A DNA stretch of 64,000 nucleotides from Bacteroidia bacterium (GTDB lineage: Bacteria > Bacteroidota > Bacteroidia > NS11-12g > UBA9320). The notes under the pieces were generated by a model. It was not told the origin of the DNA and did no database searches. It saw nothing but the letters and a program-made list of their open reading frames with translations. The position numbers and the translations under genes are program-made. The stretch lies in assembly GCA_965216465.1 (NCBI GenBank), contig CBDCFW010000006.1, positions 416,723-480,722 on the forward strand. The letters are read 5' to 3'. Below are positions 30,245 to 58,094 of the stretch, one piece after another (within the stretch, counting starts at the first letter, position 1; each line of letters starts with the position of its first letter).

Positions 30245-30249
30245 CATTT

Positions 30250-30324: not shown

Positions 30325-30329
30325 CAAAC

Positions 30330-30399: not shown

Positions 30400-30404
30400 C
30401 ATAA

Positions 30405-30478
30405 GATAGGATGGCTGAGTGGTTTAAAGCGGCAGACTGCAAATCTGTTATTCAGGAGTTCGAATCTCCTTCCTATCT
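30405..30478 (+). tRNA. tRNA-Cys (GCA) with U73 discriminator
   Basis: Acceptor GATAGGA/TCCTATC plus T, anticodon stem GCAGA/TCTGT, loop CTGCAAA, T-arm AGGAGTTCGAATCTCCT. Confidence 0.7.
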
Positions 30479-30483
30479 CACTT

Positions 30484-30556
30484 GCGACTTAAGCTAACCT
30501 GGTGGAAGCATTGGTCTGAAAAACCAAAGGGCGAGGATCGTAACCTCGAAGTCGCA
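30484..30556 (+). tRNA. tRNA-Phe (GAA), unusual T-loop ATCGTAA
   Basis: Acceptor GCGACTT/AAGTCGC, anticodon stem TTGGT/ACCAA, loop CTGAAAA, T-arm CGAGGATCGTAACCTCG. Confidence 0.65.
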
Positions 30557-30562
30557 CAATAT

Positions 30563-30634
30563 GGGTTATGGTAGTGGCATCCAGCCGAGACTGTAAATCT
30601 CTAGCCTTGTAGGGTTCGAATCCCTGCTAACCCA
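30563..30634 (+). tRNA. tRNA with GTA anticodon (Tyr) but short variable arm and irregular D-arm - atypical for bacteria
   Basis: Acceptor GGGTTAT/CTAACCC (one mismatch), anticodon stem GAGA/TCTC, loop CTGTAAA, a 7-nt variable region, T-arm TAGGGTTCGAATCCCTG. Confidence 0.5.
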
Positions 30635-30639
30635 CACAA

Positions 30640-30711
30640 GCTATCTAAGCATTAATGGTGATGCACTGGCCTTGTAAACCAGATAAATAGGTTCGATTCC
30701 TATAGGTAGCT
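30640..30711 (+). tRNA. tRNA-Thr (TGT)
   Basis: Acceptor GCTATCT/AGGTAGC, D-arm GCAT...ATGC, loop CTTGTAA, T-arm ATAGGTTCGATTCCTAT. Confidence 0.6.
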
Positions 30712-30716
30712 CATTT

Positions 30717-38916: not shown

Positions 38917-39957
38917 GTGAAAAAAAAATTTAGTGAATATTATAGTATCAGTAAAGATCGATTAGAAGAACACTGGGAAAAGGATACCTTTAGTTTTGAC
39001 GCTAATGTTCTTTTGAATCTATATAGATATACTCCTAAGACTAGAGATGCTTTTTTCGCTTTATTTGAAAAGATTAAAGAACGAATTTGGATCTCTTACC
39101 AAGCCGCATTTGAATATCAAAAAAATAGACTTGTTGTTATCAACGCCCAAAAAGAAGCTTATAAGGAAATAAGGGATACTTTAAAAAAGAAGAAAGGTGA
39201 GATTGAAGCCAAACTTAATGGTTTTAAAAAACATCCATACCTACAGACTAGTGAATTAAAAACTCAAATAGAGTCGGCATTTCAATCTATCAGTAAAGAT
39301 TTAGACAAATTAGAGAAAAATCACCCTGACTACTTGGTAAAAGACCCTATATGGGAGCGATTAACGGAGTTACTGGATTCGAATGTTGGAGACGATTTTA
39401 ACAAAGAGGAATTAGAAAAAATATATAGAGAAGGTAAGAAACGATATGATGAAAAAGTTCCTCCAGGATATATGGATTTAAAAGATAAAAAAAACGAAGG
39501 AAATAGATCTTTATACGGAGATATAATTGTTTGGAAACAAGTTATTGCCAAAGGCAAAGAAATCGACAATTCAATAATTCTAATAACGGACGATTTAAAG
39601 GAAGATTGGTGGTATAAGTTTAAAGGAAAAACAATTAGCCCCAGACCAGAACTAATCAAAGAATTCAAAGAGGAGGCCAACAAGCAAATTAACATCTATC
39701 AAGCCGATCGATTTTTAGAATTGGCTAATAAAAATTTAGAACAACGTACAACGTTGGAAGCAATTGAGGAAGTTCGAAAGGTAAGGTTGGCAGATGAAAA
39801 AGATATAGAAAAAGAAATAAGAGCATTCGAAATGCTCTTAGAGGATAATGGAGATGAGAATTTTAGAGAAAATGCTAGAATATTAGCAAACGTTGAAAAA
39901 AGCTCCTTTGAAAATGCAATCGAAAATAGTATCGCGGATAATAAAAAAAATAAATGA
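38917..39957 (+). CDS. PIN-like (DUF4935-type) domain protein with coiled-coil C-terminus
   Basis: N-terminal FSFDANVLLNLY(R) acidic PIN-like motif. The C-terminal half is charged and helical. Confidence 0.4.
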   Translation: MKKKFSEYYSISKDRLEEHWEKDTFSFDANVLLNLYRYTPKTRDAFFALFEKIKERIWISYQAAFEYQKNRLVVINAQKEAYKEIRDTLKKKKGEIEAKLNGFKKHPYLQTSELKTQIESAFQSISKDLDKLEKNHPDYLVKDPIWERLTELLDSNVGDDFNKEELEKIYREGKKRYDEKVPPGYMDLKDKKNEGNRSLYGDIIVWKQVIAKGKEIDNSIILITDDLKEDWWYKFKGKTISPRPELIKEFKEEANKQINIYQADRFLELANKNLEQRTTLEAIEEVRKVRLADEKDIEKEIRAFEMLLEDNGDENFRENARILANVEKSSFENAIENSIADNKKNK

Positions 39958-40316
39958 GTAACGACTTTGAAAATTCAATTGACGGATTTCATCAAGATCA
40001 GCCCCAAAGAGACGCAAAAGCTATCTTTTCAAGGTTAATTCAAGAAGATCAATATTTAGGAGACATATTCTCAATTAATTATGAACTGTCTAAAGTTTTG
40101 GTTCATGATTTCCATAGACAAAAAGTAGGAGGAATTCCGAGTCTTTGTTTTCTTATTGCAACTAGAATAAATGTAAATGAAAATATTGATTTCAAAGATG
40201 AAGATGCCTCAATTATTCTATTAAGAGTTATGGATGCTGCATCCATTCCGCAAGATCGAGAAGCAGAAAAAATAAGAGTTGAAACAGCTCAGCTGTATGA
40301 CGTCAACCAAATCTGA
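39954..40316 (+). CDS. hypothetical protein; stop codon lies inside the IS3 left inverted repeat
   Basis: ATGA start overlap with the upstream gene. Its TGA at 40314-40316 is the first 3 nt of the IS terminal repeat. Confidence 0.35.
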   Translation: MSNDFENSIDGFHQDQPQRDAKAIFSRLIQEDQYLGDIFSINYELSKVLVHDFHRQKVGGIPSLCFLIATRINVNENIDFKDEDASIILLRVMDAASIPQDREAEKIRVETAQLYDVNQI

Positions 40317-40350
40317 ACTTTTTAGTTAAAAAATTAAGATAGAGTTGGTA

Positions 40351-41325
40351 CTAATTTAAGTTAATTTTCTGATACTGTTTTTTTCTTGCTTTAAGCGTTC
40401 TTGTTTTCGTTTTACTTCTCTGCATCAATTTCTGTTCTGCTTTGCCATAATATACCTCAGCTGGTGTAAGGTTGTCTAAGGATTCATGGTAGCGTTTGTA
40501 GTTGTAATACTCCACGAACTCTTTCAACTTTCTTTCTAATTGTTCTGGACTAAAATAGTTATCTAACTTCACTACGTTTTTCATAGATCGGTGATACCGT
40601 TCTATTTTTCCTTGTGTTTGAGGGTGTAATGGTCTTCCTCTTACATGTTTCATATTTTGAACTTGAAGATAATCAGCAAGTTCGCCTGATATGTAACAAG
40701 AGCCGTTGTCTGATAGTAGCTTTGGTCTGCTATTATCGGAGACTCCAGAAGCCAATAAAGCCTCATCTAAGGTGTCTTTTACATCCTCTGCCTTCATGGT
40801 AGAACATAACTTCCAGTTAACAATAAACCTGGAGTAATCATCCAATACAGTGGAGAGGTAATACCATCCCCAACCAAAGACTTTAAAGTAGGTGAAGTCT
40901 GTCTGCCACATCTGATTTACATGAGTGGTTTTATCGTAAAAACTATCTGATGCACTCATAATCCTAAAGGCTGGAGTGGAGATTAATCCATTAGCTTTAA
41001 GAATACGATATACACTAGACTCACTAATGAAATAGCTGTAGGTGTCTGTAATATGCCAGGCTACTTCTCTTGCTGAAAGCTCTGGTTTTTCTAATGCTAT
41101 TTCAAGGACCTTGTCTCGGTCTTGCTCATTAATCCTGTTCCATGAGCCTTTTCTTCTACTAGGTTTACGAGCAAGGCCTTCAAAGCCTAGTTCATTATAA
41201 GCTCTATACCAGTTGTAGAAAGTAGTCTTATTAATCTTAAGCTCCCTTAGCGTGCGTATAACGCCCAGATCTGATTGTTCTACAAGCCTTATTAGCTCGT
41301 ACTTCTCTTGTTGACTGTAATGCAT
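40351..41325 (-). CDS. IS3 transposase OrfB (DDE integrase core), expressed via -1 frameshift from OrfA
   Basis: DDE rve core (DFTY..., DNGSCYIS, HPQTQGKIERYHRS). The OrfB frame is open upstream through AAAAAAAC in the -1 frame relative to OrfA. Confidence 0.85.
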   Translation of the reverse strand: MHYSQQEKYELIRLVEQSDLGVIRTLRELKINKTTFYNWYRAYNELGFEGLARKPSRRKGSWNRINEQDRDKVLEIALEKPELSAREVAWHITDTYSYFISESSVYRILKANGLISTPAFRIMSASDSFYDKTTHVNQMWQTDFTYFKVFGWGWYYLSTVLDDYSRFIVNWKLCSTMKAEDVKDTLDEALLASGVSDNSRPKLLSDNGSCYISGELADYLQVQNMKHVRGRPLHPQTQGKIERYHRSMKNVVKLDNYFSPEQLERKLKEFVEYYNYKRYHESLDNLTPAEVYYGKAEQKLMQRSKTKTRTLKARKKQYQKINLN

Positions 41326-41339
41326 ATACTTCTTCCTTT

Positions 41340-41687
41340 CTACTCTTCGCCACTTAAGTTTTTTTTCAATTCTCGATTCTTCAAGGATAACTCTGCTACA
41401 AGCTCCTTTAAAGACTGATTCTCCCTCTTTAGGTCTTTCACCTCTGAGGTGTTGGCTTCTCGCATGGTATCGCCTGTTAATCGACGCTTACCTGCTTCCA
41501 TGAAGTCTTTACTCCACTTGTAATAGTTCGCCTGGCTGATGCCTTCTTTTCTGCATAATTCAGCAACGGAGGTCTCTCCACGTATGCCTTCAATAATGAT
41601 GTGAATCTTTTCTTCTGATGAATACTTCTTTCTTGTCTTTCTTTTTAAGTCACTAATTAGTGAACTCGCACTTTTCTTGTTTGCCAT
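41340..41687 (-). CDS. IS3 transposase OrfA (HTH)
   Basis: SVAELCRKEGISQANYYKWSKDF helix-turn-helix and a leucine-zipper-like tail. Ends in an A7 slippery run. Confidence 0.8.
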   Translation of the reverse strand: MANKKSASSLISDLKRKTRKKYSSEEKIHIIIEGIRGETSVAELCRKEGISQANYYKWSKDFMEAGKRRLTGDTMREANTSEVKDLKRENQSLKELVAELSLKNRELKKNLSGEE

Positions 41688-41774
41688 TAAGGTTTCTTTA
41701 AAAGGTTATAAATTTATTAAAACCTCTATCTTATTAATTTAACCTAAATAGTTCACTTTTTGCTGACTTTAAAC

Positions 41775-42893
41775 ATGGAAGATTTGATATTTGATAAACT
41801 TAAATGTACCATTGAAATAAATCCTAAATCACTAAAACACCAAAAAGTATATAATTTAGAAATTCAAAACGTTTCTCTTGAAAATCTTGATATTCTAAAT
41901 AAACTTATCAGCACATTTGAAAATTTTAAATTTAAAACGATCTATTGGAAGGCTGAATCTCAATACCTTATTTCACAACCAATTAATATTCAGCAATTTG
42001 CAGCTGACCCAACAAAATCAATACCTCTACAAAATTGTTTTAGTTTAGCAGGATATTCTGATTTATCCACTCTCACAACCGACCTGTCTGAGTCTACCGA
42101 ACGGGAACGAATTAGAGATCTATTGGGCTCTGCAGTTACAAAACATATTAAAAGTGTTTGGAAAGATCATAAGATTAAAATCACTTTCGATATTTCTGAT
42201 GGTTTAATTAATTTTCATATTAAAGATAGCAACTCAAAAGAACGTGCTAAAACTTCTGATCAAAGAAGTGACGGATTTAGACAATTCATTTCTTTTTTAT
42301 TGACTCTTTCTGCTCAATATCAGAACAAGGAACTTCAGAACACACTAATTCTTTTAGATGAACCTGAAACCCACTTGCATCCTACGGCTCAATTGAATTT
42401 GCTGAGGGAAATTATTGAAATATCAAAAGGTCAGTCAAATAATGTTCTCTTTTTTGCAACCCATTCAAATTATTTAGTGGACAAAGAATGTCTAGAAAGA
42501 AACTACAAAGTGATTAAGGATAAAGATAGAACTAAAATTCATCGGTTTGAACAACATTACTCATCTTATGCTAGCGTGAATTACGAAGTTTTTGAAATTC
42601 CAACTTCAGACTATCATAATGAGCTTTATGGAAAATTATATTCTCTTTCAGAGATTGAAAATCTAACAAAATTTGATGAATATATTCAAGAAAAAGTTGA
42701 AGGATCAACAGTTAAAAAAGGTTACAAACATACAAATGGTAAAGAGTTTGATTGTTCCTTAAGTACTTACATTCGCCATCAAATTCATCACCCTGAAAAT
42801 GACAAGAACAAACGTTATACTTATGATGAGCTCTCAACTTCGATCAAAATAATGCTGGAACACATAAACTTGCTTTTGCAAAACAAAGCTTAG
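41775..42893 (+). CDS. ABC/OLD-type (AAA_15/21-like) ATPase lacking its N-terminal Walker A segment - probable 5'-truncated gene
   Basis: Signature-like RSDGFRQFISFLL, Walker B LILLDEPETHLH, H-loop FATHSN. No P-loop anywhere in the ORF. Begins 20 nt after the IS3 right end. Confidence 0.5.
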   Translation: MEDLIFDKLKCTIEINPKSLKHQKVYNLEIQNVSLENLDILNKLISTFENFKFKTIYWKAESQYLISQPINIQQFAADPTKSIPLQNCFSLAGYSDLSTLTTDLSESTERERIRDLLGSAVTKHIKSVWKDHKIKITFDISDGLINFHIKDSNSKERAKTSDQRSDGFRQFISFLLTLSAQYQNKELQNTLILLDEPETHLHPTAQLNLLREIIEISKGQSNNVLFFATHSNYLVDKECLERNYKVIKDKDRTKIHRFEQHYSSYASVNYEVFEIPTSDYHNELYGKLYSLSEIENLTKFDEYIQEKVEGSTVKKGYKHTNGKEFDCSLSTYIRHQIHHPENDKNKRYTYDELSTSIKIMLEHINLLLQNKA

Positions 42894-42929: not shown

Positions 42930-43145
42930 ATGATTATGACATTAAGATACCTTGGCTCAAGTGACGAATATTTCGAAACAGATGAAAACTATGAAGTTAA
43001 AATTGAATGGACTGGCAATTTAGAGCCGCTTACCATAGTGCGAACTGACGATCATCTGAAAAGCAAATTCTATCGTATGGCAAAACAAGCACATAGAGAT
43101 TGGGATCTAAATGATTGTCCATATTTCATAAATACAAATAAATAA
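42930..43145 (+). CDS. hypothetical protein
   Basis: 71-aa ORF. Confidence 0.3.
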   Translation: MIMTLRYLGSSDEYFETDENYEVKIEWTGNLEPLTIVRTDDHLKSKFYRMAKQAHRDWDLNDCPYFINTNK

Positions 43146-43147
43146 AT

Positions 43148-43684
43148 ATGCCTATCGCCAGCGAACTCTCTAACTTAATCGTACCCAAACAGGTCCTTGA
43201 ATCAAAGTATCAAGGTGGCATCTCTCAATTTAAAAAGGACTTCAATTTTGAAAGCTCTAAACATAATGCTGAGGATCATGAAGTAATCAGAATTGGGGCT
43301 ATGAATAGTGATGAGTTTGATCTAGATCTACTTATTACTAGAGGACTTGAATACAACTCCAATACAAACTCAACCGAAGACTTCGTAATAGTTAGCCGAT
43401 ACGGAGGTGCTCTTTGGAAAACAGAATGGCTTCATGAGAATGGAGTTTTTCTGTGGCACTTCTATGCTGATCCTAGATCACATAGAGAAGCTAAGGATAG
43501 AGGACTATGTCCGATGAATGAAATAGAAAAGAGATATGGCAGCTATGAAAATTTCTACTCTCCAATAATGCATGATGAAATTGAAGATACATTAAGCTAT
43601 GAAGAACTTAAAAGAATAGCAATTGAAGTAGTGGATATTATGTCTGATGATGATAATAAAAAATCAAGTAAGAATATTACTTAA
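43148..43684 (+). CDS. hypothetical protein
   Basis: 178-aa acidic ORF, 2 nt after the previous stop. Confidence 0.35.
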   Translation: MPIASELSNLIVPKQVLESKYQGGISQFKKDFNFESSKHNAEDHEVIRIGAMNSDEFDLDLLITRGLEYNSNTNSTEDFVIVSRYGGALWKTEWLHENGVFLWHFYADPRSHREAKDRGLCPMNEIEKRYGSYENFYSPIMHDEIEDTLSYEELKRIAIEVVDIMSDDDNKKSSKNIT

Positions 43685-43688
43685 CATT

Positions 43689-44681
43689 CTAATTTCGCAG
43701 TTTAGCTATGGATTCTGAAATGCTTTTTAAGGATTCCAAGATTGGTCCTTTGTCATTATGAGAATTACTATCAAGTGTATCACTTGGGTTTTCACCTACC
43801 ACTTTTAATATGGTCTCTATCAGCTCTAACTTAAGATCTTTTCCTATTCTGGAATCACCTAAGTCTTCTAATTCTTGCTTTAGTCCATAATATATTTTGG
43901 CAACATCTTCTTTGTAGGCATACTCCTGTTGTAATCTCTTATTTTGGCTTCTTTGCTTGCTTGCAAAAACAGCTAACCAAATTGCACCTCCCAAAAATGG
44001 CAAGTTGCCTAAAGTGTATTTCCAAACTTCGGATAGCTCATAATTAACATTCTTGAATGTTATTATTGAGAAAGTCATCAAGGCACCTATTGATATAAAG
44101 AATAACAAAATCCACAACCTGTTGGAAATCACAAATGACTGCTTATGATCATTAAATGCCTTGGCTAATGCTACTGTGCTTGCTCCCTTCAATAAACTTT
44201 CAATTCTCTTAAATAGCTCACTTTGCTTTTTGGAATTATTTTGATATAACTCACTTGTACTTGACAAAAATCCTTCGATGCGAGACTTAATTCCTTCTAT
44301 ATGAATTCCTTCATCATTTCTGTATCCATTCAGCTCAGATTCATACTCTGAAATGTCCTCAAGCGTTTTTTGAATTTCAATCTTATATTGTTCAAATTCA
44401 GAAGCAAAACCTTCAATATCCTCTCCTATCACATAGCCAGATTCATTTTCTTCGAAAACCTTGTCATGAATTTTCGATATGTCTTTAGAAACAATTTCCG
44501 TCTGGTCTTTAATCTCATTTGTTTGATTGATTAAATCATTCATCACTGCTAAGCTCTTTTCAGCAGATTCTCTCAATTCGTCAATCTCTTTAATCTTTAG
44601 TTCAGCCTTTTTCTTAAATTCGTTGATATTCCTTGTAATCCAAGCCTTATGACCAGATGAGAAATCTTCCTCCTTTTTCAT
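43689..44681 (-). CDS. coiled-coil protein with two C-proximal transmembrane helices
   Basis: A heptad-rich N-terminal ~160 aa. Hydrophobic segments LWILLFFISIGALMTFSIITF and LPFLGGAIWLAVFA. Confidence 0.4.
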   Translation of the reverse strand: MKKEEDFSSGHKAWITRNINEFKKKAELKIKEIDELRESAEKSLAVMNDLINQTNEIKDQTEIVSKDISKIHDKVFEENESGYVIGEDIEGFASEFEQYKIEIQKTLEDISEYESELNGYRNDEGIHIEGIKSRIEGFLSSTSELYQNNSKKQSELFKRIESLLKGASTVALAKAFNDHKQSFVISNRLWILLFFISIGALMTFSIITFKNVNYELSEVWKYTLGNLPFLGGAIWLAVFASKQRSQNKRLQQEYAYKEDVAKIYYGLKQELEDLGDSRIGKDLKLELIETILKVVGENPSDTLDSNSHNDKGPILESLKSISESIAKLRN

Positions 44682-44786
44682 AGTTATTATTATTTAGACC
44701 TTTTCTTATAGGCCGCTAGCTTCGATACGAATTTAAGGATTATTAAATGATTTATAGCATAACCAAATGCTCAGAATGCCATTGCT

Positions 44787-45692
44787 CTATATCCCATCCA
44801 TTTTATCCAGTCCAAGATTTTTAACATACTGTTGCTTTAATCTATACCTAATAAAAGAGCTTAAAACACAATTGTCTTTTGTTTTGTCAAATGGGCTGTC
44901 ATAATTGTATTTTGGTTCATATGATCCGATTGTAAATACATAACCATCCTCTTCTGTGTTAAAGTAAGCTCCAGATCTAAACCCTAAACACAGTTCAATA
45001 ACATAAGCTTTAGTTTCCCATCTTAAAACTGTTGTTTGAATTAACTCAGAGTTCTCATCCTCGATACCAGAATTTGTAAATATTTGTCCATCCTTAAACG
45101 TGTACAGAGTATGGTAGTCTGTAGTGTATTCTCGAGGCTCGCCATATTTAGCAGTATATTTAGTAACCACAACATCAACGATATCTTGTCTTACAGTGCT
45201 AGAAATTGTTTTAACTGGAAAACTCATCCCGGTCACAGTTGACTGAATAGACAGAGGATTAAACCACTCTTGAGAATAGGTTGTGTTGTTGGATGAAACT
45301 AGAATAACATCAACGGCCCTTATTTTATCATTCTGCATTGTAGGATAGATAATACCATAATGCGAAATATCAACCTGACCATTTTTAAAGTTGTAGTTGT
45401 CGAAATTAAGAACATTTGAAGTCCAGAGGTTTATTCCATTCTTTTGTTCTTTAATGTAGTCTCCTCGCCAAAAATTATTTGTGTAAAACGTAGAAAGTCC
45501 TAACTCTAATGAATCAAAGGTGCTAACTTTAGAACCTAGCATTATTTGGTCTATTATAGTTACTTCTTCTTGACTTAGACTGCTACATCCCGTAAAAAAT
45601 AAAACAACTATTACCGATGCGAAGTAGTTAAATGATGTCTTCATATTGCTTATAATTAAATCAAAAATATAGGCATTCATGCTTATAGGCAA
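44787..45692 (-). CDS. hypothetical lipoprotein
   Basis: Signal peptide with Cys (FFTGCSSL). Confidence 0.4.
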   Translation of the reverse strand: MPISMNAYIFDLIISNMKTSFNYFASVIVVLFFTGCSSLSQEEVTIIDQIMLGSKVSTFDSLELGLSTFYTNNFWRGDYIKEQKNGINLWTSNVLNFDNYNFKNGQVDISHYGIIYPTMQNDKIRAVDVILVSSNNTTYSQEWFNPLSIQSTVTGMSFPVKTISSTVRQDIVDVVVTKYTAKYGEPREYTTDYHTLYTFKDGQIFTNSGIEDENSELIQTTVLRWETKAYVIELCLGFRSGAYFNTEEDGYVFTIGSYEPKYNYDSPFDKTKDNCVLSSFIRYRLKQQYVKNLGLDKMDGI

Positions 45693-45704
45693 GCGTGCCT
45701 TGAA

Positions 45705-45944
45705 ATGGAATTTTACAGCGTGAATAATTTGCGAGATGACGAGTTCCTAAATAAGCTTGGAAAGAGGTTAAAAGAGCTAAGAACAGCTCAGGGTTTGACT
45801 CAGGAAAAACTTGCATTTGCTATCGGAGTTGAAATCTCACAGATAAGTCGAATTGAACGAGGAATAATCAATCCAACAATTTCAACTCTCCTGGTTATCT
45901 CTAAACATCTGAACATTAATTTGAGTGAATTCTTAGAATTCTAA
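45705..45944 (+). CDS. XRE-family helix-turn-helix transcriptional regulator
   Basis: LTQEKLAFAIGVEISQISRIERG is a Cro/C1-type HTH. Confidence 0.7.
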   Translation: MEFYSVNNLRDDEFLNKLGKRLKELRTAQGLTQEKLAFAIGVEISQISRIERGIINPTISTLLVISKHLNINLSEFLEF

Positions 45945-46026
45945 TTCACTAAACCCGAGTGCAGAATAGTTATCTTTGGAAGTGTGAAACTCGAGTTCAT
46001 CTCTTTAGCACTTTGTTCTTATTGTT

Positions 46027-47178
46027 ATGTATAACCCTTATGCGTTATATATAAACTGTGATGGAGCTATGGATTACGATTCCAGAAGTTCTGGAGGAAT
46101 AGGTTATGTCATTACCTTTCCAGACAATATTGATATGGAACAAATTTTAATCTCCAAAGGTACGTATGTTGGAGGTAATCCAGAAACAATGGAAATGGAA
46201 GCGTTAATCCAAGGAATTAAAGAAACCATCTCATTATTCCAACAACACAGTGCTATACTAAAAAGTATTTCCCAAATAATATTTATTTCTGATAGGTACA
46301 ATCTTCAAGACTCAGAACGAACATCTCCGTTCAGAATTGCAAGACTCAGACGAAACAAATGGAAAACTTATGAAGGGAAGCCAATCAAGAATCACAAACT
46401 GCTCGATGAATTGGATAAAGAAAGACAAAAGTTAGGCCATGTTTCTAAAGCAAGAATAAATATTGAGTTTAGGCCAAGGAAAAAGAATAAAATTGCAGAC
46501 AAACTTTCAAAGAAAGGAAAGGCAAATAACCTTATAAACCAAAAGCTTTGGAAAAAGGGGGAAAAAATTGGTCGAAGACGATTTGACGGTCCAGAAGTAA
46601 ACTATCGTAATTTTAAATCAGGAGTTAAAATCCACATTTCAGTCTTCAGGAAGGACCCAGTGCAGGATGAGTGGGAAGTATGGGGTGAAATCTGTAACGG
46701 ACCAGAGCATTCTAAAAAAGTAAAAATATACGCAGAGAATGAACTCGCATCAAATCTTTCAAGGGGCAATGAATATATCGTGACTATTTTTGCTAAGTAC
46801 TCTAACTTCTTAAGGATATATGGTTCAATAAATGAAGTAAAAAGAATGACCCTAAAAGAATTTAAGAATAAATATTACCTCAAAAGGGATTATAAACGTT
46901 CAGATGAAAATAACTATAGTTGCGATTTGCACATTTGCTCTAAACATGATAACAAAGTTGTAATGACTAATTCCAGTACTATCAAGATTGATCCCTGTGC
47001 CGAAATTGACCAAGATTTGTCATCTTATCCTATTAGCACAACTTCTTTGTTAAATGAAACACTTGTAACCCTCTTTAATCTTACTCTCTTGCGTTTTGGA
47101 ATAACTGAAACAGTTAAGGGCAACAGCAAAAAAGAGATTGCTACGTTCTTCAAAGGTGTTTCATTTAAGCTTGACTAG
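46027..47178 (+). CDS. protein with N-terminal RNase H-like domain and unknown C-terminal domain
   Basis: RNase H1-like motif order: CDGA..GGIG, ETMEMEAL, FISD, NKIADKLSKKG. Confidence 0.4.
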   Translation: MYNPYALYINCDGAMDYDSRSSGGIGYVITFPDNIDMEQILISKGTYVGGNPETMEMEALIQGIKETISLFQQHSAILKSISQIIFISDRYNLQDSERTSPFRIARLRRNKWKTYEGKPIKNHKLLDELDKERQKLGHVSKARINIEFRPRKKNKIADKLSKKGKANNLINQKLWKKGEKIGRRRFDGPEVNYRNFKSGVKIHISVFRKDPVQDEWEVWGEICNGPEHSKKVKIYAENELASNLSRGNEYIVTIFAKYSNFLRIYGSINEVKRMTLKEFKNKYYLKRDYKRSDENNYSCDLHICSKHDNKVVMTNSSTIKIDPCAEIDQDLSSYPISTTSLLNETLVTLFNLTLLRFGITETVKGNSKKEIATFFKGVSFKLD

Positions 47179-47222
47179 ATTTCTAAAAATGGCATCTCAA
47201 TAATCCCAACCGTACAATAAAC

Positions 47223-47663
47223 CTACTCATCTCTAATCGAATAATACCCCTCATTACTAATAATAAGGTGATCCAACAAAGCAATATCTAGCAAATTCGC
47301 ACCACTCTTAATCTTCTCCGTCAAATAAATATCTGCTCTACTTGGTTTTAAATTTCCGCTAGGATGATTATGCATAAGAATAATACTTGAAGCTCCTACT
47401 TTAAGTGCAATAGCGAAGATGACCTTAGGGTCGCAATAAGTTCCGCTTACCCCTCCCTTACTTACCGAATAATATCCAAGCAACCGATTATTCCTATTTA
47501 AGCAAACCAAAATCATTTCCTCAACCCAATTAAACGTATCCTGGTCAAATATCTGCCTTGATAGCTCAAACGCATCGTCAGCATTTCTAATCTGGTATAA
47601 ATCATCCTTATTTACTGGAGGATCATATACAACAGACATTTTGATTTTAGGTATAAGTAGCAT
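47223..47663 (-). CDS. RadC-like JAB/MPN domain protein
   Basis: JAMM motif HNHPSG...PSRAD and a RadC-like C-terminal core. Confidence 0.75.
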   Translation of the reverse strand: MLLIPKIKMSVVYDPPVNKDDLYQIRNADDAFELSRQIFDQDTFNWVEEMILVCLNRNNRLLGYYSVSKGGVSGTYCDPKVIFAIALKVGASSIILMHNHPSGNLKPSRADIYLTEKIKSGANLLDIALLDHLIISNEGYYSIRDE

Positions 47664-47712
47664 GGTTTGTATAATTTTGTTGAGGGAAGGACTAAGCTAA
47701 TCACAAATTGTC

Positions 47713-47955
47713 ATGGATAAATACGGAATTGCTGCTGTTGTTGTACTTGTAATCTTTGCAATTTTGGAGTTGAATTCAAAACAGACTTTCAAGACTAAAG
47801 AACCTAGCGAGCTAGAGAAAGCCAAGAACGGTTCTTTTAAGATAAGAAAGGAATTTGCTGAAATTTTGAAGATGAAAGGTGACCAACAGGAGCTATCAAG
47901 AGAAGAGAAGGACTTTTTATCAGATTTCTATGAAGAAGAGAACAATAGAGATTAA
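47713..47955 (+). CDS. small hypothetical protein with N-terminal TM helix
   Basis: 80-aa ORF. Confidence 0.3.
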   Translation: MDKYGIAAVVVLVIFAILELNSKQTFKTKEPSELEKAKNGSFKIRKEFAEILKMKGDQQELSREEKDFLSDFYEEENNRD

Positions 47956-48026: not shown

Positions 48027-48782
48027 TCATGGATAAACCTTATCATCAAAATGGAGTTTCCAGTCAAAATATGAAGGCTCACCACCAACGTATTCTATAT
48101 TGTCTTCGGGCCAAAGTTGAGTATAGTGCTTGAGCCATACCCCCTCATAAATATTAGTAAAGTCGTTTACAACCTGCTTGACCAGTTCTAAATCATGTTT
48201 TCTATAGATAGAATTGTCAGTATACTCTGACAATATTACGCCATCATAGAAGTCATCACCTGCGTTTGCCATAAAATCCGCCATCAGATATTCATAGTAC
48301 TGCCCATCACTTGGATCTTTCTTAACTGAATAATATCTTTTCAACTGAGTGTCAAACCTTATCCAACCAGACTTTGCATTACGAATATAACTTGTATCCG
48401 TTTCTAAATTAGACCAATTGTGTTTTATTCTTTTACTATTAGCTCTTAGTACTTTGTATTCTTTAATCTGCTCACTCATAGTGTCGGCTAAATCTCTAGA
48501 GCTAGTATAGTTAAAAACAATCTCCTTAGTGGTCAAATCTTCTGTTCCATCGAAGTAGAATGTGTCAAAAAATGCTAACGTATACTCGATAACCCCTGAA
48601 GGAGGGTTAGTATAGTTTCTTGGACTATCAATATATGTCCAATAAGCGTCTTCCATTGGATAAAAATCGAATGGTGGATCTAAGTCAACATTATCTTTAT
48701 CTTTACATGCTTCAAATGCAAGAATGATAGTTGTCGCAACCACTATCTTAACAAATAAACAATTTCGTTTAAGTATTCCCAT
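48027..48782 (-). CDS. hypothetical lipoprotein
   Basis: Signal peptide plus Cys (AFEACKD). Confidence 0.4.
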   Translation of the reverse strand: MGILKRNCLFVKIVVATTIILAFEACKDKDNVDLDPPFDFYPMEDAYWTYIDSPRNYTNPPSGVIEYTLAFFDTFYFDGTEDLTTKEIVFNYTSSRDLADTMSEQIKEYKVLRANSKRIKHNWSNLETDTSYIRNAKSGWIRFDTQLKRYYSVKKDPSDGQYYEYLMADFMANAGDDFYDGVILSEYTDNSIYRKHDLELVKQVVNDFTNIYEGVWLKHYTQLWPEDNIEYVGGEPSYFDWKLHFDDKVYP

Positions 48783-51580
48783 TTATCACTATTGGTTTTT
48801 GCACGTATTAAAACAGAATAAGTTCCCTGAGTTGCCTCTTCTCCATCTATAGTTCCGTCCCAGTACGAGTTTTCCTCATCAAATACTTTTTCACCCCAAA
48901 AATTGTAGATCGTTAATCTATAATTTTTGACTCCAAGTACAATGGGCTTAAAATAATCATTAATTCCATCACCATTTGGGGTAAAAGAGTTCGGTACGAA
49001 GATAGTGGGATTATATGGCACAAATATCACGTTACTGTAACTTTGCTCTCCCGTATTTAGGTTGTTAGCTTCAATTCTATAATTTAGCCCCAACTTCTCA
49101 TCGGGAATAATAAAATCAGTAAAGGAACGGTCTCCAAATCCGCACATTCTCCACAATAAATCAGCGTCACTTCTACCAACCTTATGGTCTACTAAATCAG
49201 TAGACCAATTTGAATCTATGTTCCATAATAATTCCACCCTTGAATTATCATTACCCATTTGTCCGTTTAAGACTATGTTATTACTAGCTTCACTTCTATT
49301 ACTATAAGCACCACACAAGTTTTCAGCAACTACAACATAAGTATTCTTATCTGTGACTTCAGCCCGCTCATCTATGTATTCCAAATCTAATGTGGAATCA
49401 ATCATTTCATCGTTCCTATAAATGAGATACTTGCGTGTATAATCTAGCTTGTCCCATTTCACTTTTATCCTATTGTCTTCTACCGTCACCTTTTTAATCA
49501 CAACAAGATCGGACGAGTTAAAACTCTGCCTAACATGGATAAAGCTCGAATCTATAGATACGCACCCTGTTGACCCATAAAGCAATTGATAAATTTTAAC
49601 TTGGTCTGAGCCCGTGGTGTTTTCATTAAATGTATGTTCATCTTCACCTGAAAAGCTTAATGATCTATCTGAATTACCCCATATATATACCGCACTATCA
49701 ACGTCAGACAAGTACTTCATTTTAACAGAGATTTGTAAAGGAGTGCACCCTCCTGTATCACTTAGAATCATTCCAGGTCTAGGTGCTGGAATAACTTTGA
49801 TTTGGCTTGTTGAATCTAAGATGTCAGTACAATACCCATCATTAACTTCAAGCAAAATTGGGAACGATCCTATAGTGTTAAAAATTTTGTGTGTTTCACT
49901 CGGGATATCTTCAATTGAGGAGTAACTAAACATGCTATCAGTGCCATCTCCATAGATAAACCTATAAGTTATAGGTCTTCCTTTAAACTCCACTCTTGAT
50001 AAATCCCTAATTGTGGTGAAACTCCATTGACATGTTTGAGAGTCTCTTAAAGAAATCTGAGCATGCGGTTTAAAATGTTTAAAGGAAATTGAAACAGTAT
50101 CTAAAAACCATCTTGAATATCCCTTTTCTGTATAAGCAATAAGTTTTACAGATTTGGTTCTTGTCTCAGTTAATTTTAATCTTACGGCATCTCCAACTAA
50201 AGTGTCGGTCTTATTAATTACCCAAACATAATGCCTAAAGAAGGTTGTATCGGCATTTTGACGAAGTAAAAGTATACTGTCGCAGGTTTGTTCGCTTGTG
50301 AATCCAAGATTTGCGTATCGATGTAGACCCTGTTGCGTGTGGCCATACACTCTTATGTTCCTTGTAAGATAACCTCCTTTAATAGTTCCGTTTTCAATGT
50401 CTCCTTCTATGGTGTAGGTCTCAATATTTATAATATCTCCTGAAACATAGTCTTTGTCAAGATAACCATGTAAATAGTCATTTCCTTCAGTATGCGAGCT
50501 CCATGCACTAAACATTAATTTACCATTAGGAGAAAAATGAAAATTTGAAAGCTCATAGAAAGACTCTAATCTTCTAGATGGGGTCATTTTGATGTTACGT
50601 GCCTTGTCAGAATCTAAGTCGTATAAAAGCAATGAATTTATATGATCTTTTGACCCTGAAGTCAAATTCGAATTAACCGCACCAAGGACTAGTTTATCTT
50701 CAAAATTATTGAGGAAAGTGAAATCTTGAATTGCATAATATCTAATTCCATCAACAATTTGACTCAAGTTGTTATACTTGAAGGTGTTTCCTGTTCTAAT
50801 AAACTCTCCGGTTTCTTGATTAAAAGTAAAAAAATCAATGAAATTATCCTGATTTGATGACAAATTGTGACTTTTAACATACCTCAAAGCAAAAGTTTTT
50901 CCAGATTTTGAAAAACGTGAAGTGATAGCTGTGTTAACATATTGATTGAATCCATCTATGCTTGTTGCAATTGGTGAATTGATTCCTTCAGAATCAATTA
51001 GGTAAGCATACAATGAGTCAAGACGTTGAGTTACGAGCCATACATCCTTTTTGTTTCGATGCCATGTAAAGGATAGTGTATTGTCATCGGTATAATTAAG
51101 CTCAACTTCATCAGAGACATTCTCTGCATTCTTAGTTGCATCTATTATGAAATAGGAAAGTCCTTTTTCATATTGTAAATCTCCATGTTGACCCTTATAT
51201 CCTCCACTTACAAAAAGATAGAACAAATTATCACCTTTGTGAAGCAAGTAAATTGAATTACTCGAATAATCTGATGGATGCAAATCACGAACTTCTATAA
51301 CATCAATTAAACTCATTTCAGAGTTGTAGATTCTAAGTTTAACAAAATCATTCTCGAACAACAAGGGTATAACGTATAAAGCTATAGACCCATCGGCATT
51401 TCCTACAATATGTCCTTCAAGATTAGGGGTCTCATACCCTTGCAAATTAAGATTCGCATTTGGGATGATAGAATCTCCAACCCATTTGCAAGGTCGATTT
51501 TCTAGAAAATAATCATACCGCTGTGCTTTGCACCCAAGTGCATAAAAAAGAATAAGAGATATGATAAAATGTAACCGCAT
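48743..51580 (-). CDS. large secreted protein with T9SS type-B (CHU_C, gliding-motility-associated) C-terminal domain
   Basis: C-terminus PNSFTPNGDGINDYF...YNFWGEKVF...GTYSV matches the TIGR04131-like domain. Confidence 0.65.
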   Translation of the reverse strand: MRLHFIISLILFYALGCKAQRYDYFLENRPCKWVGDSIIPNANLNLQGYETPNLEGHIVGNADGSIALYVIPLLFENDFVKLRIYNSEMSLIDVIEVRDLHPSDYSSNSIYLLHKGDNLFYLFVSGGYKGQHGDLQYEKGLSYFIIDATKNAENVSDEVELNYTDDNTLSFTWHRNKKDVWLVTQRLDSLYAYLIDSEGINSPIATSIDGFNQYVNTAITSRFSKSGKTFALRYVKSHNLSSNQDNFIDFFTFNQETGEFIRTGNTFKYNNLSQIVDGIRYYAIQDFTFLNNFEDKLVLGAVNSNLTSGSKDHINSLLLYDLDSDKARNIKMTPSRRLESFYELSNFHFSPNGKLMFSAWSSHTEGNDYLHGYLDKDYVSGDIINIETYTIEGDIENGTIKGGYLTRNIRVYGHTQQGLHRYANLGFTSEQTCDSILLLRQNADTTFFRHYVWVINKTDTLVGDAVRLKLTETRTKSVKLIAYTEKGYSRWFLDTVSISFKHFKPHAQISLRDSQTCQWSFTTIRDLSRVEFKGRPITYRFIYGDGTDSMFSYSSIEDIPSETHKIFNTIGSFPILLEVNDGYCTDILDSTSQIKVIPAPRPGMILSDTGGCTPLQISVKMKYLSDVDSAVYIWGNSDRSLSFSGEDEHTFNENTTGSDQVKIYQLLYGSTGCVSIDSSFIHVRQSFNSSDLVVIKKVTVEDNRIKVKWDKLDYTRKYLIYRNDEMIDSTLDLEYIDERAEVTDKNTYVVVAENLCGAYSNRSEASNNIVLNGQMGNDNSRVELLWNIDSNWSTDLVDHKVGRSDADLLWRMCGFGDRSFTDFIIPDEKLGLNYRIEANNLNTGEQSYSNVIFVPYNPTIFVPNSFTPNGDGINDYFKPIVLGVKNYRLTIYNFWGEKVFDEENSYWDGTIDGEEATQGTYSVLIRAKTNSDKWEYLNEIVYLLR

Positions 51581-51583
51581 ATT

Positions 51584-54500
51584 TTAACGAATTACCATCG
51601 CCTTCATTGACTTTAGTCGAACTCCAAATGAGTCCATAACGTTCACATAGTACAATCCTGAAGATAGCCCAGTGAAATCTAGAACTATGCTTCCTGTACC
51701 AACAAAGTTATTACTTGTAGTGATAACATTCCCAATTTGATCGACAATTTCATACTTGCACTGTTGATTTTTAGAGGCAAACTTAAGCACCATCAAACCA
51801 GTTGTTGGATTTGGATAAAGACGGAAATCATAATTGTCCACAGCCTTATGATTTAAACCGGTTGAAGAGCTATTTGAACTGGAACCGGTGTACTTAAACG
51901 TACCTATATTGCTGTAATTCCCAGCCAACAACGCATCAAGCAAGTCACAAGCAATTCTTTTGTCATCTGAATCTCCGTTCTCCGAGCTACATGAAGCAAT
52001 CAAATTTACAGTATCACGAGCATAGAATGACTCAATATATTGGTCAAGTAGAGTATTCCCCAATTCCTTTTCTTCTGAACTTCGTGAACCCTCACCTCCG
52101 CCACTTCCTTCAGGGCAAAATACGTCCTGATATGTTACCCCAGCTGGGTCACAAGTATACGTTGTAGTAGTTGGAGTCACAAAATCATCGTATGGTGCGT
52201 GAAATAACAACCCTGCTGGATCAAATATCTGATTAACATGATATTTATCCTTATGGTTAATATTGGTTGGATCAAATACAAAAGTTGGAAAGATATTAAA
52301 CAAATTTCCAGGATCTTTAAGATCATGCAGCTGATTACCGATTATCGTGCTTGAACCATTATCATACTCCCAGACTACAGGATTAAAATCATAAATATTA
52401 CAAAGTATCTGAGTTTGAGAGTTATCATCTATTAAATAATTTGCGACCGACTCATATTCTGGATTTGCTGACCCACTAGGTATTGAACTAGTTATATGAT
52501 TGTAAATGACTTTTGAAGTTTCTACTCCAAATGTATTATTTGTATGAATGCCTTCTAGCCGCAGTAGCGAAGAGTATTCTCCAGTGGGGGTAAGTTGCTC
52601 AAGGTCACTAAAGTCTATTCTGTTTCCAATGATATTAAGCTCATCTGTTCCAGTTGTATGGATGGCCCTAACAGTATTGATTGTTGGGTTTAGTTTGAAA
52701 TCTTGATCACAAGTTACATCAATGTCATAAATAGTAGGATTTGAGTAATCCGAAATTTGAATTGCTGTCGCATTGTTATGAAAATCAGCGTCGTAAATTG
52801 TTACAATATCACTCGTGTTCTTGCTCCCTGCAGTAAAGGCTTGGACACCGATGTCATAACCCTCAAAATAACAAGGATTAGGAATTGAAGGAGCACCACA
52901 AGGTTCTACTATAGGAGGATTGGGATCCAATTCTCCAGGATAAACTGACACCGGAGCATCTAGTGCGGAAATGGCTACGCCTCTTCCAGTAAATGTTGTT
53001 CCTTGATACAACAATTTGTTTTTTGTTGTGTTAATAAACTTGCATCCAACTATCGGAATTGTTGTCACTCCCCATAGTTTGACATCAACTATCACGCCTG
53101 ATCCGGCCCTATTTGAATAATTAAGATCTGAATTACTTCTAAATTCACAATTTTCGATGCTACTTATGTTAACATAAGAATACGGATAGAAACTAACACT
53201 GTGCCTGTTGTTTGTAAATTTTGAATCTTTAAGCAAACAAATACCCCCAGAAGTATTAAACGGATTGCCATAAAGATCACCCATGGTTATTGCATCTAGT
53301 GCATACAATATTTCAGATCCATTACGTATTTCGAGTTGACCATGATTTAAACTTCCGAGTACATGCTGTGAATTTGCATCTCCGAGCACTATTATTCCCT
53401 TCCATAACTCTTCGCATTTCTTTGTCAGAATTGAATTGTCTATTATGAGCTTACCACCGCTTTCAACAATAATCTTTACATCAGGTGCCATTCGCACAAA
53501 TGAATTGGTGATTTCTAGCACATATCCAGGTAATATCCTAATATCCTGATTTACGGTATGTTGTGAATTTGACCAAGTAACATAATTCTCAATTTTATAT
53601 TCTTCTACATTTTTGGGACAACAAGGAAGTCCGCTAGACCATATTCCATTTCCAAAAACAGAGCAATACACTTTCCCATTTTTATAATCAACTTCAATAT
53701 CTTGAATTTTACCACGTGGCAAGCTAGGCTTTTGCTTACCTGAAGGACCATCATTTATTGATTTGTCATATCTCACCCAATTGCCGGCTCCTCTTCTAAA
53801 CCATAGGCCATTCATTGTTGCTACAAATAATTCATCTGGGTCATCAATATTGTCAAGAGATTTACTGTTATATTTAACCTTTTTAATTTTATAGGCTGAA
53901 AAAGGAAACATTCCGTTCCAGTTGGGTCCTGTACCTGAATACCAACCTGATGAGAAGTCGTTGAATTCAACTGACCCTATTGCTGCTTTGGCATTTATAC
54001 TTCTAAGCACAATGCTACGGTCTGTTCCCACTCGATCTTTAATTGCCAAGGTTAAGTAAACAATATTGCCATCATTCTCATCCAATTCAATATCTGTTAT
54101 GGCTTGATGCCAGTTTACACCAAGATTTGAACCAACACCTCCTTTTATGTTTGATACATTTACTGCTTCCCAAACAGGTGAAGTTGCTGTTATATCTAAG
54201 CACCTAAACAGTCTACTCCCCCCACTTGGATCTTGACTTAGATAGACATCCCTTAATGCAAGCCACATAACTTCGGGAGATTCTTCTGAAATAGCAATAG
54301 TTTCAACAAGCTTGTTGGTATAGCTAGGGTCTATCATCGTAAAGTCAAATATCGTTACTGGGGTTGTGCCATCTTTTATTACTTTCGATCCAGCATCGCT
54401 AATGTAAAACAACTCGTCCGAACTGTTAAGGTGAAAGAGTTCCTTGGTTGTTGGCAAAGTTTGTTTTTGAAATGTTGTTAAACCTTTGTAAGAACCATTA

Positions 54501-56848: not shown

Positions 56849-57173
56849 ATAGATACATGCAACTATAGGAAAGCATATTGCTCTTCATCTGATAAGTTGA
56901 GAATACCAACCAAGAATAATGAACTAACTAACTATGCAATCTCAAAAAATAAATAAGAATACAATTTACTATTGATATCATACAAGATGATGTGCTCCTT
57001 ATCCATAAACACTTCATCAACAGCATAGCTCCCTCCTTCCTTAATACAAGAAAGCGTTGTGTTGCTTCTAACATAAAAAGGACAGACTTTACGTGAAAGC
57101 TGCCCTTTTTCGTTTATAACCAGTATGCTCTTGCTATTGAGCCAATATAGGCTCTTTTTAAACGGTTTGCTCA

Positions 57174-58094
57174 TTAATTTAAATACCAACTGTTGGTTTT
57201 GTTAGCTATGGCTTCAGATAAGCTCTGAATACCTTCAAATATGGAAACATTACGATCCAGAATCGTATCGATGTAGCTTGATTTATTTGCTCCTGTAAAG
57301 AGGTTGTATACTCGCCATAAATCGATTGATCCATCATCTGTTCGAGCATGACTTTTATCTTTATAATAGTCTTCAGCTACAACAGATAACTGTGAGTCAG
57401 TTACACCTAAGTTTGGGATGCCAGATTTTAGGTTTCTAGGCATAGCATTGAACATTTTACCTCTTCCTAAAAGATGTGCAAACTCAGTTTCGGATAAGAC
57501 CAACTTGTTCATTTGTTTGTAAGTTGAAAGACTTCGTTCTAGACTAAAAGCTTGAAATAACTGTCTTGCACTTTGAACCAACATTTCAGTTGTATTAGCC
57601 CTAATTGAAGACATATACCCATCGGTTGAAATACACAGATTAGTACAAACCTGATTCTTGAACCCCACAAACACCTTGAATTGCTCTAAGTTATCTTTAG
57701 TGGAGTACAAATTATCTAAGCTGTAGGATTTAACTCCTCCAATAGATAACTCAAGCACATCATCACCTACTTTAAAGGTATGTTCTGGAAATGATGCTAC
57801 CCAAGCCATTCGTTCGTAATACAAAGTTGTCTCATCAGGAAGTAGCTCTTTGGCAGGTTTATGTTTTGCTGAAGCTATTCTACCTTTTATTGGATGACTA
57901 ACTCTAACTAAAGGTTCAGAACTAGATCCAAATAAACCTTTTGCTCCATCTAAAACACCATCAATAAACTGATGATGAGCAATACAAGGCTCGTTGTCCT
58001 TGATGTGTACTGGAATGAGGTGTTCTTGTTCTATCTCAGCTAGATCCATTTCAATGGTATTGGCTGTTATAAACTGATTGTACTTATTAGACAT
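57174..58094 (-). CDS. hypothetical protein, co-operonic with AAA_24 ATPase
   Basis: 306-aa ORF overlapping the upstream gene by 8 nt. Confidence 0.4.
   Translation of the reverse strand: MSNKYNQFITANTIEMDLAEIEQEHLIPVHIKDNEPCIAHHQFIDGVLDGAKGLFGSSSEPLVRVSHPIKGRIASAKHKPAKELLPDETTLYYERMAWVASFPEHTFKVGDDVLELSIGGVKSYSLDNLYSTKDNLEQFKVFVGFKNQVCTNLCISTDGYMSSIRANTTEMLVQSARQLFQAFSLERSLSTYKQMNKLVLSETEFAHLLGRGKMFNAMPRNLKSGIPNLGVTDSQLSVVAEDYYKDKSHARTDDGSIDLWRVYNLFTGANKSSYIDTILDRNVSIFEGIQSLSEAIANKTNSWYLN

Follow-up and report, generated by a model that had tools for sequence, protein, structure and literature searches.

The segment at positions 42930-47955 of a 64,000-nucleotide (nt) stretch of DNA from a Bacteroidia bacterium (contig CBDCFW010000006.1, positions 416,723 to 480,722; this whole stretch is referred to as the window) contains eight open reading frames (ORFs), one of which encodes a 383-amino acid (aa) protein that combines a ribonuclease HI (RNase HI) domain with a family-specific OB-fold. 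We lean towards reading this segment as a mosaic accessory island, composed of a mobile-element scaffold and swappable cargo, with the RNase H-OB protein as a candidate single-gene anti-invader nuclease among the cargo. The scaffold, which we attribute to an integrated mobile element, consists of three genes, encoding a 178-aa protein, an XRE repressor (together with its operator), and a short RadC/JAB protein. The genes for a 330-aa protein and a lipoprotein, as well as the small ORFs, are considered separate cargo.

Gene content of the segment

All eight ORFs are present in the ORF list of the window. The codon-usage log-odds of each is 0.14-0.33 in the annotated frame, compared to -0.14 or lower in the other five frames. 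Searches against family libraries gave no housekeeping or core metabolic assignment for any of the eight, which agrees with an earlier note on this DNA that had described a run of consecutive genes without such assignments. The same note had suggested that the proteins be compared with models of known defense systems. In PADLOC v2, none of the eight matched a system-specific model; the XRE regulator matched generic HTH and control-protein models, the 330-aa protein had a non-significant match to DruC (E 0.013), and the other six proteins, including the RNase H and RadC proteins, had no match at all.

Comparison with a related contig

The distinction between scaffold and cargo rests on the comparison with one related, partly syntenic contig (L024). 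Three blocks of DNA align between the window and this contig: 43163-43458 in the 178-aa gene (80% identity), 45665-45934 comprising XRE and its upstream region (87%), and 47234-47679 comprising RadC (83%). The corresponding protein identities are 73% for the 178-aa protein, 88% for XRE, and 84% for RadC. Nothing between the three blocks can be aligned. In place of the 330-aa and lipoprotein genes of the window, L024 carries two unrelated ORFs, the 330-aa gene being absent from the equivalent position, and an unrelated 295-aa gene fills exactly the slot between the XRE stop codon and RadC that the RNase H gene takes up in the window. The similarity begins abruptly at about 45665, some 55 nt upstream of XRE, and it stops within about 10 nt of the XRE stop codon (the blastn block extends to 45934, and the alignment decays just past 45944). 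Because of this pattern of blocks and breaks, we regard XRE and RadC as the scaffold and the gene located between them as exchangeable cargo.

The XRE-family HTH regulator (45705-45944, plus strand) matches Pfam HTH_3 with 5.9e-17 over aa 22-76. Its translation probably starts at the GTG at 45720, since the same start is kept in L024. Directly upstream lies a promoter/operator-like block (45665-45719, plus strand), which contains the direct repeat TATAGGCA and an AGGCA/TGCCT inverted repeat. This block is nearly 100% identical between the window and L024, compared to 87% for the XRE coding DNA. The near-perfect conservation of the repeat-bearing block suggests that XRE may control its own upstream operator and the downstream cargo gene. 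As described in the earlier note, XRE is divergent from a lipoprotein gene. The latter is a 301-aa ORF on the minus strand (44787-45692) with a lipoprotein signal (lipobox MKTSFNYFASVIVVLFFTGC) and a supported coding frame; its translation probably starts at the ATG at 45644, and no homolog was found among families, plasmids, or the fetched loci.

Hotspots for defense genes and other cargo, in which a conserved scaffold carries swappable genes, are known from P2/P4-like prophages and satellites. The window resembles such hotspots of integrated elements in its conserved flanking genes, in the sharp breaks of homology at gene ends, and in the presence of unrelated cargo in the same slot of a related genome. 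It differs from the P2/P4-type hotspots in that the host chromosome is of the Bacteroidota type and in that XRE and RadC, instead of phage genes, form the scaffold.

These results bear directly on the suggestion of the earlier note that the segment may be an undescribed abortive-infection module, in which all eight ORFs would act together as regulator (XRE), nuclease (RNase H), JAB protease, and membrane effector. The genes are contiguous, they lie in a low-GC stretch (0.31-0.35), and none of them is a housekeeping gene; furthermore, another locus (L015) also has XRE, RNase H, and RadC at distances of a few kb from each other, and RadC is found near RNase H in a further one (L009). However, L024 keeps the 178-aa, XRE, and RadC genes while the RNase H gene and the 330-aa/301-aa pair are swapped, and the sole relative found for the 71-aa ORF, a 40% tblastx match, adjoins RadC in L024 rather than the 178-aa homolog. 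The eight genes are located on both strands and form four or more transcription units. For the clustering of neighboring genes, 80 further metagenomic loci were added; in the resulting set of 76 non-redundant RNase H loci, none of the window genes recurs as a constant partner. RadC was found within 4 kb (about 2 kb) of the RNase H gene in four loci, three of them non-redundant (the window, L015, and L009, of which L038 is a duplicate), and XRE in seven, of which about five are non-redundant. Likewise, six loci that harbor members of the 330-aa family have no neighbor in common with the window. A single abortive-infection module made of all eight genes is thus very improbable, and we consider it essentially excluded.

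Domains and structure of the RNase H-OB protein

The mosaic island that we favor includes the RNase H-OB gene as its most notable cargo. The 383-aa protein is divided into an RNase HI catalytic domain (aa 1 to about 168; 46027-46530), the family-specific OB-fold (aa ~175-272; 46549-46842), and a lineage-specific C-terminal tail of 109 aa (46849-47178), all encoded on the plus strand. The RNase H1-like N-terminal domain, already recognized in the earlier note, was recovered with Pfam RNase_H (26.8 bits with a cutoff of 25.8) and with phrog_531 'RNase H' (5e-11). The fusion to a second domain was also borne out, although what had been listed as an 'unknown' domain is refined here to the OB-fold and the tail.

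An AlphaFold2 model of aa 1-285, a structure prediction that the earlier note had asked for, has a mean predicted local distance difference test (pLDDT) score of 93.8 and a predicted template modeling (pTM) score of 0.87; the latter, obtained for a two-domain model, implies that the two domains are held in a fixed arrangement. In a Foldseek search, the best solved-structure match of the modeled N-terminal domain was Escherichia coli RNase HI (E 4.6e-9, target TM score 0.75). D12 and D89 do not vary across an alignment of 71 family sequences, and at least 90% of these sequences have E56 and D158. A profile search against the PDB aligned the DR and NKxADKL motifs, which contain D89 and D158, to D70 and D134 of the E. 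coli enzyme. The profile alignment also placed a basic handle, W..WK..GKPIKN, opposite the basic protrusion of E. coli RNase HI (W..rgWkt.dkkpvKN). From the folds and the conserved residues, we predict that the RNase H-OB protein cleaves the RNA strand in RNA:DNA hybrids.

The protein thus has the fold, the DEDD residues, and the hybrid-gripping handle (W..WK..GKP.KN) in common with RNase HI of the E. coli RnhA type. In other respects the two are different: the identity is only about 18%, His124 of E. coli RnhA is not conserved, and the window protein has an additional C-terminal OB-fold that is found nowhere else, plus the 109-aa tail in this genome. The family is patchy in its distribution and occurs in variable regions, and it is not a core gene. 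The score against the NCBIfam rnhA equivalog model (PRK00203) is 28.2 bits, far below the cutoff of 160, and for this reason we do not regard the RNase H-OB protein as the housekeeping rnhA enzyme. The eukaryotic RNase H1 follows the same design principle, in that a catalytic RNase H domain is linked to a further nucleic acid-binding domain; there this further domain is the N-terminal HBD and here a C-terminal OB-fold, and no homology between them is implied.

The OB domain is a five-stranded closed beta-barrel that resembles the OB-folds of the SSB/RPA/MCM type. No Pfam model covers it. In the 71 sequences it is well conserved, with 55% mean column identity and with invariant basic and aromatic residues; the conserved residues are K180, R184, Y193, K209, W216, K233, Y235, and R246. 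These basic and aromatic residues lead us to predict that the domain binds single-stranded DNA or RNA. A profile of the OB domain retrieved 39 representatives among 1.84 billion proteins, and all of these are RNase H plus OB proteins or fragments thereof, with the exception of one chimera. This metagenomic protein (P0243, 219 aa) has the N-terminus of a KAP-type P-loop NTPase, joined to the family OB domain at the position where the RNase H domain normally ends; it represents either a recombination junction in a defense island or an assembly artefact.

The 109-aa tail is absent from all aligned homologs, which extend over no more than the initial 70% of the 383-aa protein. The chance of a stop-free run of 109 codons is about 2.5e-4, and the codon score of the tail equals that of the core; judged from these values, the tail is probably translated. 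We also considered the tail as a fused remnant of a neighboring or displaced gene. This was rejected because the tail has no similarity to the 295-aa gene of L024, to the genes downstream of RNase H elsewhere, or to the rest of the window.

Distribution and genomic contexts of the RNase H-OB family

A homology search recovered 133 clusters at 90% identity, almost all of them 270-300 aa in length. Members were found in 14 of 185,579 species representatives, all of which are metagenome-assembled genomes (MAGs); they belong to Bacteroidota, Ignavibacteriales, and Fibrobacteres, and include a Deltaproteobacteria MAG and a Kuenenbacteria MAG. The family had no match in IMG/VR, in GenBank phages, or in PLSDB plasmids, and none of the predicted viral structures contained both an RNase H and an OB domain.

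The most frequent neighbors of RNase H-OB genes encode subunits of type I restriction-modification (R-M) systems. Proximity to R-M genes was counted in 43 non-redundant loci with at least 3 kb of flanking sequence, and a type I hsd gene is located within 4 kb in nine of these informative loci. In most of the nine, the RNase H-OB gene lies directly beside or between hsd genes on the same strand. In L009, L013, L047-L049, L051, L056, L083, and L100, the family member is part of an hsdR/M/S operon or abuts one, and it is encoded on the strand of the hsd genes. In L047, hsdR (3584-5974) is followed by the RNase H-OB gene (5992-6846), hsdM (6839-8149), and hsdS, and the reading frames of the RNase H-OB gene and hsdM overlap, as they do in L048. 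The order hsdR, RNase H-OB, hsdM is kept among members whose proteins are 62-84% identical. A different order is found in L013 (hsdM, RNase H-OB, a 210-aa gene, hsdS, a Fic gene, hsdR), and there are at least three arrangements in total. Other genes embedded in the same R-M operons encode a putative AbiC (L048), a Fic/DOC protein (L013), and a RelA/SpoT-like protein (L083). Further immediate neighbors across the family include Cas12a, Shedu SduA_C, AbiJ, resolvases, and integrases.

The PrrC anticodon nuclease is the paradigm of an accessory effector embedded in a type I R-M locus. Like such effectors, the RNase H-OB family is found within 4 kb of hsd genes in about one fifth of the informative loci, at times together with AbiC, Fic, or RelA_SpoT. 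The catalytic domains are unrelated, PrrC being a HEPN/ABC protein whereas RNase H-OB has an RNase H fold. A literature search for an RNase H/OB-fold defense protein or an R-M-linked RNase HI returned nothing relevant; the domain combination and the association with R-M genes match neither a PADLOC v2 model nor the literature found by this search.

Two further arrangements were observed in the family. In L008, a Bacteroidota MAG, a 1256-aa Cas12a-like protein with RuvC_1, REC1, NUC, and Cpf1 REC2 domains is encoded between RadC and the RNase H-OB gene, followed by a ParA-like ATPase and a SIR2-like pair (2714-6484 and 9838-11732). In the clade comprising L072-L075, L063, and L033 (about 5250-5830), RNase H-OB is preceded by genes for a 190-aa serine resolvase/invertase and, in the opposite orientation, an XRE protein, and it is followed by a translationally coupled 194-aa ORF; this set may be a small mobile or invertible cassette.

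The association with R-M genes also speaks to the possibility that the 383-aa protein plays no part in conflicts between host and invader. It could be a redundant or decaying RNase H paralog, serving the removal of R-loops or primers and carried passively in a junk-rich variable region, and the cluster would then have no collective or defensive function. The region does decay, as illustrated by an IS3 insertion with truncated flanking genes and by the presence of orphan ORFs; the protein has an anomalous tail found in no homolog, and the closest structural match of the family is the housekeeping RNase HI. However, all catalytic residues are kept and the OB domain is highly conserved, the codon usage of the tail is normal and its stop-free length improbable, and 28 bits are far from the 160 expected of an rnhA equivalog. 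In addition, the link to type I R-M (9/43 loci) is non-random, and, together with the long-lived synteny of the operons, it argues for a selected, specific role. We consider a passive paralog quite unlikely.

A proposed role for RNase H-OB

We tentatively propose that the RNase HI-OB protein works as an immune effector together with type I restriction. Through its OB-fold it would bind single-stranded invader DNA or R-loops, and it would remove the RNA primers or hybrids that the conversion or replication of this DNA requires, thereby reaching single-stranded and hybrid targets to which restriction is blind; in the window it would have become cargo of a mobile island under the control of XRE. 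As a whole, this proposal is more doubtful than probable.

In the mechanism that goes with the mosaic island favored here, the slot downstream of XRE holds a stand-alone effector consisting of the RNase HI domain, the family OB-fold, and the 109-aa tail. The OB-fold and the basic linker would anchor the enzyme on single-stranded nucleic acid, and the DEDD site would cut the RNA within adjacent RNA:DNA hybrids, examples being primers on single-stranded invader DNA and R-loops at replication origins. Cleavage of these hybrids would block the replication of incoming phage or conjugative DNA. In other genomes, RNase H-OB fills the accessory slot of type I R-M operons that is also used by AbiC, Fic, and RelA/SpoT-type effectors, and would serve as a second line beside restriction. 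The gene content, the folds, the conserved catalytic residues, the swapping of cassettes, and the genomic associations are observed; the enzymatic activity, the control by XRE, and any anti-phage role are inferred, and the mechanism itself is deduced solely from the folds and the conserved residues.

Several observations weigh against the favored reading of RNase H-OB as an anti-invader nuclease. No known defense model matches the RNase H-OB protein, so that a role in defense is assigned through guilt by association. The embedded members belong mainly to one clade plus two or three other arrangements, and the number of independent associations with R-M genes is therefore small; most neighbors across the RNase H loci are without annotation. 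The copy in the window is not embedded in an R-M operon, the nearest hsdR-like ORF (61663-63912) being 14.5 kb away. It sits between XRE and RadC, a position typical of the establishment regions of mobile elements, and the proximity of RadC to RNase H genes is also compatible with a mobile-element function. Lastly, the Pfam RNase_H score just clears its threshold, and a homolog of the tail was found in none of the fetched loci.

RadC and mobile elements

The RadC-like protein (146 aa; 47223-47663, minus strand) matches Pfam RadC with 1.1e-36, and its translation contains an intact JAMM motif (HNHPSGNLKPSRAD; pattern H-x-H-x7-S-x2-D). Against the full-length RadC model of NCBIfam it scored 108.6 bits, below the cutoff of 180, and the match covers only model positions 107-208; the full-length RadC/YicR architecture is thus not present. 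The protein differs from chromosomal RadC/YicR in that it is without the HhH N-terminal part. It resembles the short RadC-like JAB proteins of conjugative and integrative elements in its RadC Pfam domain, its intact JAMM motif, and the location of its homologs beside ArdA, ArdC, and DUF3871 on plasmids and conjugative transposons.

Homologs of the RadC protein were found on 16 plasmid records, nearly all from Bacteroidota. Their neighbors include an ArdC-like gene in Pontibacter, and ArdA and tra genes in a conjugative transposon of Bacteroides ovatus. These contexts agree with a published description of RadC domains as characteristic of conjugative elements (PMC5512222). In L008 (36-2545), homologs of an AAA_24 ATPase, a DUF3871 protein, and a small ORF that are also present in the window are followed directly by RadC. 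DUF3871 and RadC are likewise adjacent in MT839478, a contig from a fecal viral fraction, and DUF3871 also occurs on a 15.5-kb circular Bacteroides element with two integrases. In the window, the module of AAA_24 ATPase, DUF3871, and an 85-aa ORF (56932-58965, minus strand; Pfam matches to AAA_24 and DUF3871) is separated from RadC by about 9 kb containing three genes of the type IX secretion system (T9SS) type (48027-56848). Compared to the contiguity in L008, this gap suggests an insertion or rearrangement inside a mobile-element backbone. The earlier note had correctly identified a RadC-like JAB protein and called it typical of mobile or defense islands; the protein is better read as a marker of a mobile-element backbone than as a component of defense.

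The RadC contexts lead to the main rival of an immune effector, namely that RNase H-OB and RadC are establishment or anti-defense factors of an integrative or conjugative element, processing the RNA primers of the single strand that enters the cell, or degrading guide RNAs hybridized to element DNA and so countering CRISPR or Argonaute R-loops. In both the window and L015, a short RadC is the neighbor of the RNase H gene, and L008 has RadC with AAA_24 and DUF3871 about 5.4 kb from the RNase H gene; such RadC genes adjoin ArdA or ArdC on Bacteroidota plasmids and conjugative transposons, in keeping with the published link to conjugative elements. Resolvases and integrases are among the immediate neighbors of the family, and the predicted single-stranded DNA-binding OB-fold would suit DNA that enters the cell in single-stranded form. 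However, while RadC homologs occur on 16 plasmid records, RNase H-OB was found on none of them and in no phage or IMG/VR contig, and the place between hsdR and hsdM (L047, L048), in the company of AbiC, Fic, and RelA_SpoT, is a position for host defense and not for anti-restriction. L024, moreover, has the RadC scaffold without the RNase H gene. Since the family is missing from the plasmid and phage collections and is found within hsd operons, a role in establishment or anti-defense is weakened and appears rather unlikely.

Other genes of the segment

The 330-aa protein (43689-44681, minus strand) has an N-terminal coiled coil, about two transmembrane helices, and a short C-terminal region, in line with the description in the earlier note. 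Weak matches to SMC/Rad50 coiled coils extend over aa 15-165, one strong hydrophobic helix was found at aa 188-210, and a second, weaker one at about aa 225-243 was read from the sequence. There are 181 full-length homologs of 320-355 aa, none of which has a Pfam domain, and the distant homologs on plasmids and phages are all annotated as hypothetical. Three of the six genomic contexts of the family are defense-like (NACHT/DUF3644; DUF6088-AbiEii; type I R-M); the remaining ones are one Crp/SUKH neighborhood and two housekeeping neighborhoods. With only three of six contexts defense-like, the use of this family as a marker of defense islands was not upheld. That the 330-aa protein is a membrane effector is only a guess.

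The 178-aa ORF (43148-43684, plus strand) is a near-orphan and part of the scaffold in common with L024. It has a single homolog among 5.8 billion clusters, P0242, which is 73% identical and is located on L024. Upstream of it lies the 71-aa ORF (42930-43145, plus strand), whose coding frame is supported by the codon score. Neither of these two ORFs had a match in the family libraries (Pfam, PADLOC v2, NCBIfam, and PHROG). At the other end of the segment, an 80-aa orphan (47713-47955, plus strand) has a transmembrane helix at aa 1-24 and a supported coding frame; homologs of this ORF were not found.

Genomic setting

The gene content of the window, including PorP/SprF and large proteins with T9SS C-terminal domains, is that of a Bacteroidota-type chromosome. 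The low-GC stretch that holds the cluster is rich in accessory and decaying genes. Directly upstream of the cluster (38917-42893, plus strand) are an intact PIN_8 gene (2e-66), a 120-aa fragment, an IS3 insertion sequence (IS) element, and an N-terminally truncated AAA_21/AAA_15 ATPase. The 120-aa ORF overlaps the PIN_8 stop codon and then runs into the IS3 element, where it is cut off. The element (about 40314-41755) has orfA and orfB and imperfect terminal inverted repeats, with no clean target duplication. The ATPase fragment beyond it matches only the C-terminal half of AAA_15/AAA_21, without the Walker A half; among the PADLOC models, AriA, GajA, and Old fit it best. This layout resembles a defense-like locus of two genes that was ruined by an IS-mediated deletion. 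In L014, an OLD-type ATPase is encoded upstream of the RNase H gene; a kinship of the window fragment with it was considered and rejected because only the generic ABC signature region is in common (37% identity over 101 aa).

The hallmarks of a defense island that the earlier note had seen in the cluster hold in part. Type I R-M, defense, and mobile genes show a strong link to the RNase H family, the PIN_8 gene and the truncated ATPase are located upstream, and no gene of the cluster is core or metabolic; half of the contexts of the 330-aa family are not defense-like, and RadC is better read as a mobile-element marker.

The HsdR-like ORF at 61663-63912 (minus strand) starts at the helicase Walker A motif (MATGSGKT) and is without the N-terminal nuclease region. 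It may be truncated or frameshifted, or the remainder may lie past the end of the window. No hsdM or hsdS was seen in the window, and neither att-type direct repeats or duplications of tRNA ends that would bound an island, nor an integrase or element borders, were found there. There is no CRISPR array, retron-like RNA, or other Rfam family near the cluster. A scan for sigma-70 promoters and terminators gave counts equal to the shuffled expectation; Bacteroidota promoters differ from the sigma-70 consensus.

Several further features were noted elsewhere in the window. A zeta-toxin/AAA_33-like P-loop kinase (37284-37931, minus strand; Pfam 1e-6) is located at the edge of the low-GC island, and no obvious epsilon-type antitoxin was called. 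A C-5 cytosine DNA methylase at 5676-6659 (minus strand) looks like an orphan and may be a solitary methylase; at 7824-8876 (plus strand), an AAA_18 kinase-like domain is fused to a dCMP/cytidine deaminase domain, and this enzyme could modify or deplete nucleotides. A 48-nt near-perfect palindrome (24352-24399; 96% self-complementary) is the sole long repeat of the whole window. Within 2.1 kb (29062-31168), ARAGORN identified 17 tRNAs, and two more were matched by Rfam only. This array is preceded by a divergent WYL-WCX-PhyH regulator (27147-28877) and followed by a Band7/SPFH gene, an RtcB RNA ligase, and RlaP, a member of the RNA-repair Pol-beta family (31446-34657). Horizontally spread 'L-arrays' of tRNAs have neighborhoods enriched in rtcB (PMC8421152), and the array in the window fits this description. 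Together with RtcB and RlaP, it could be an island for the back-up and repair of tRNAs.

Implications

If RNase HI-OB is not a defense effector, what remains is an accessory-gene mosaic of the ordinary kind. The RNase H-OB protein is easy to test, being encoded by a single small gene (about 275 aa) and having a confident structural model. The XRE/RadC scaffold with its swappable cargo points to a cargo hotspot in little-studied mobile elements of Bacteroidota, one that could be mined for further systems. If RNase HI-OB is a defense effector, cleavage of RNA:DNA hybrids would join the known mechanisms of bacterial immunity, and type I R-M operons would gain a new accessory component that could act on single-stranded phages and conjugative DNA, which escape restriction.

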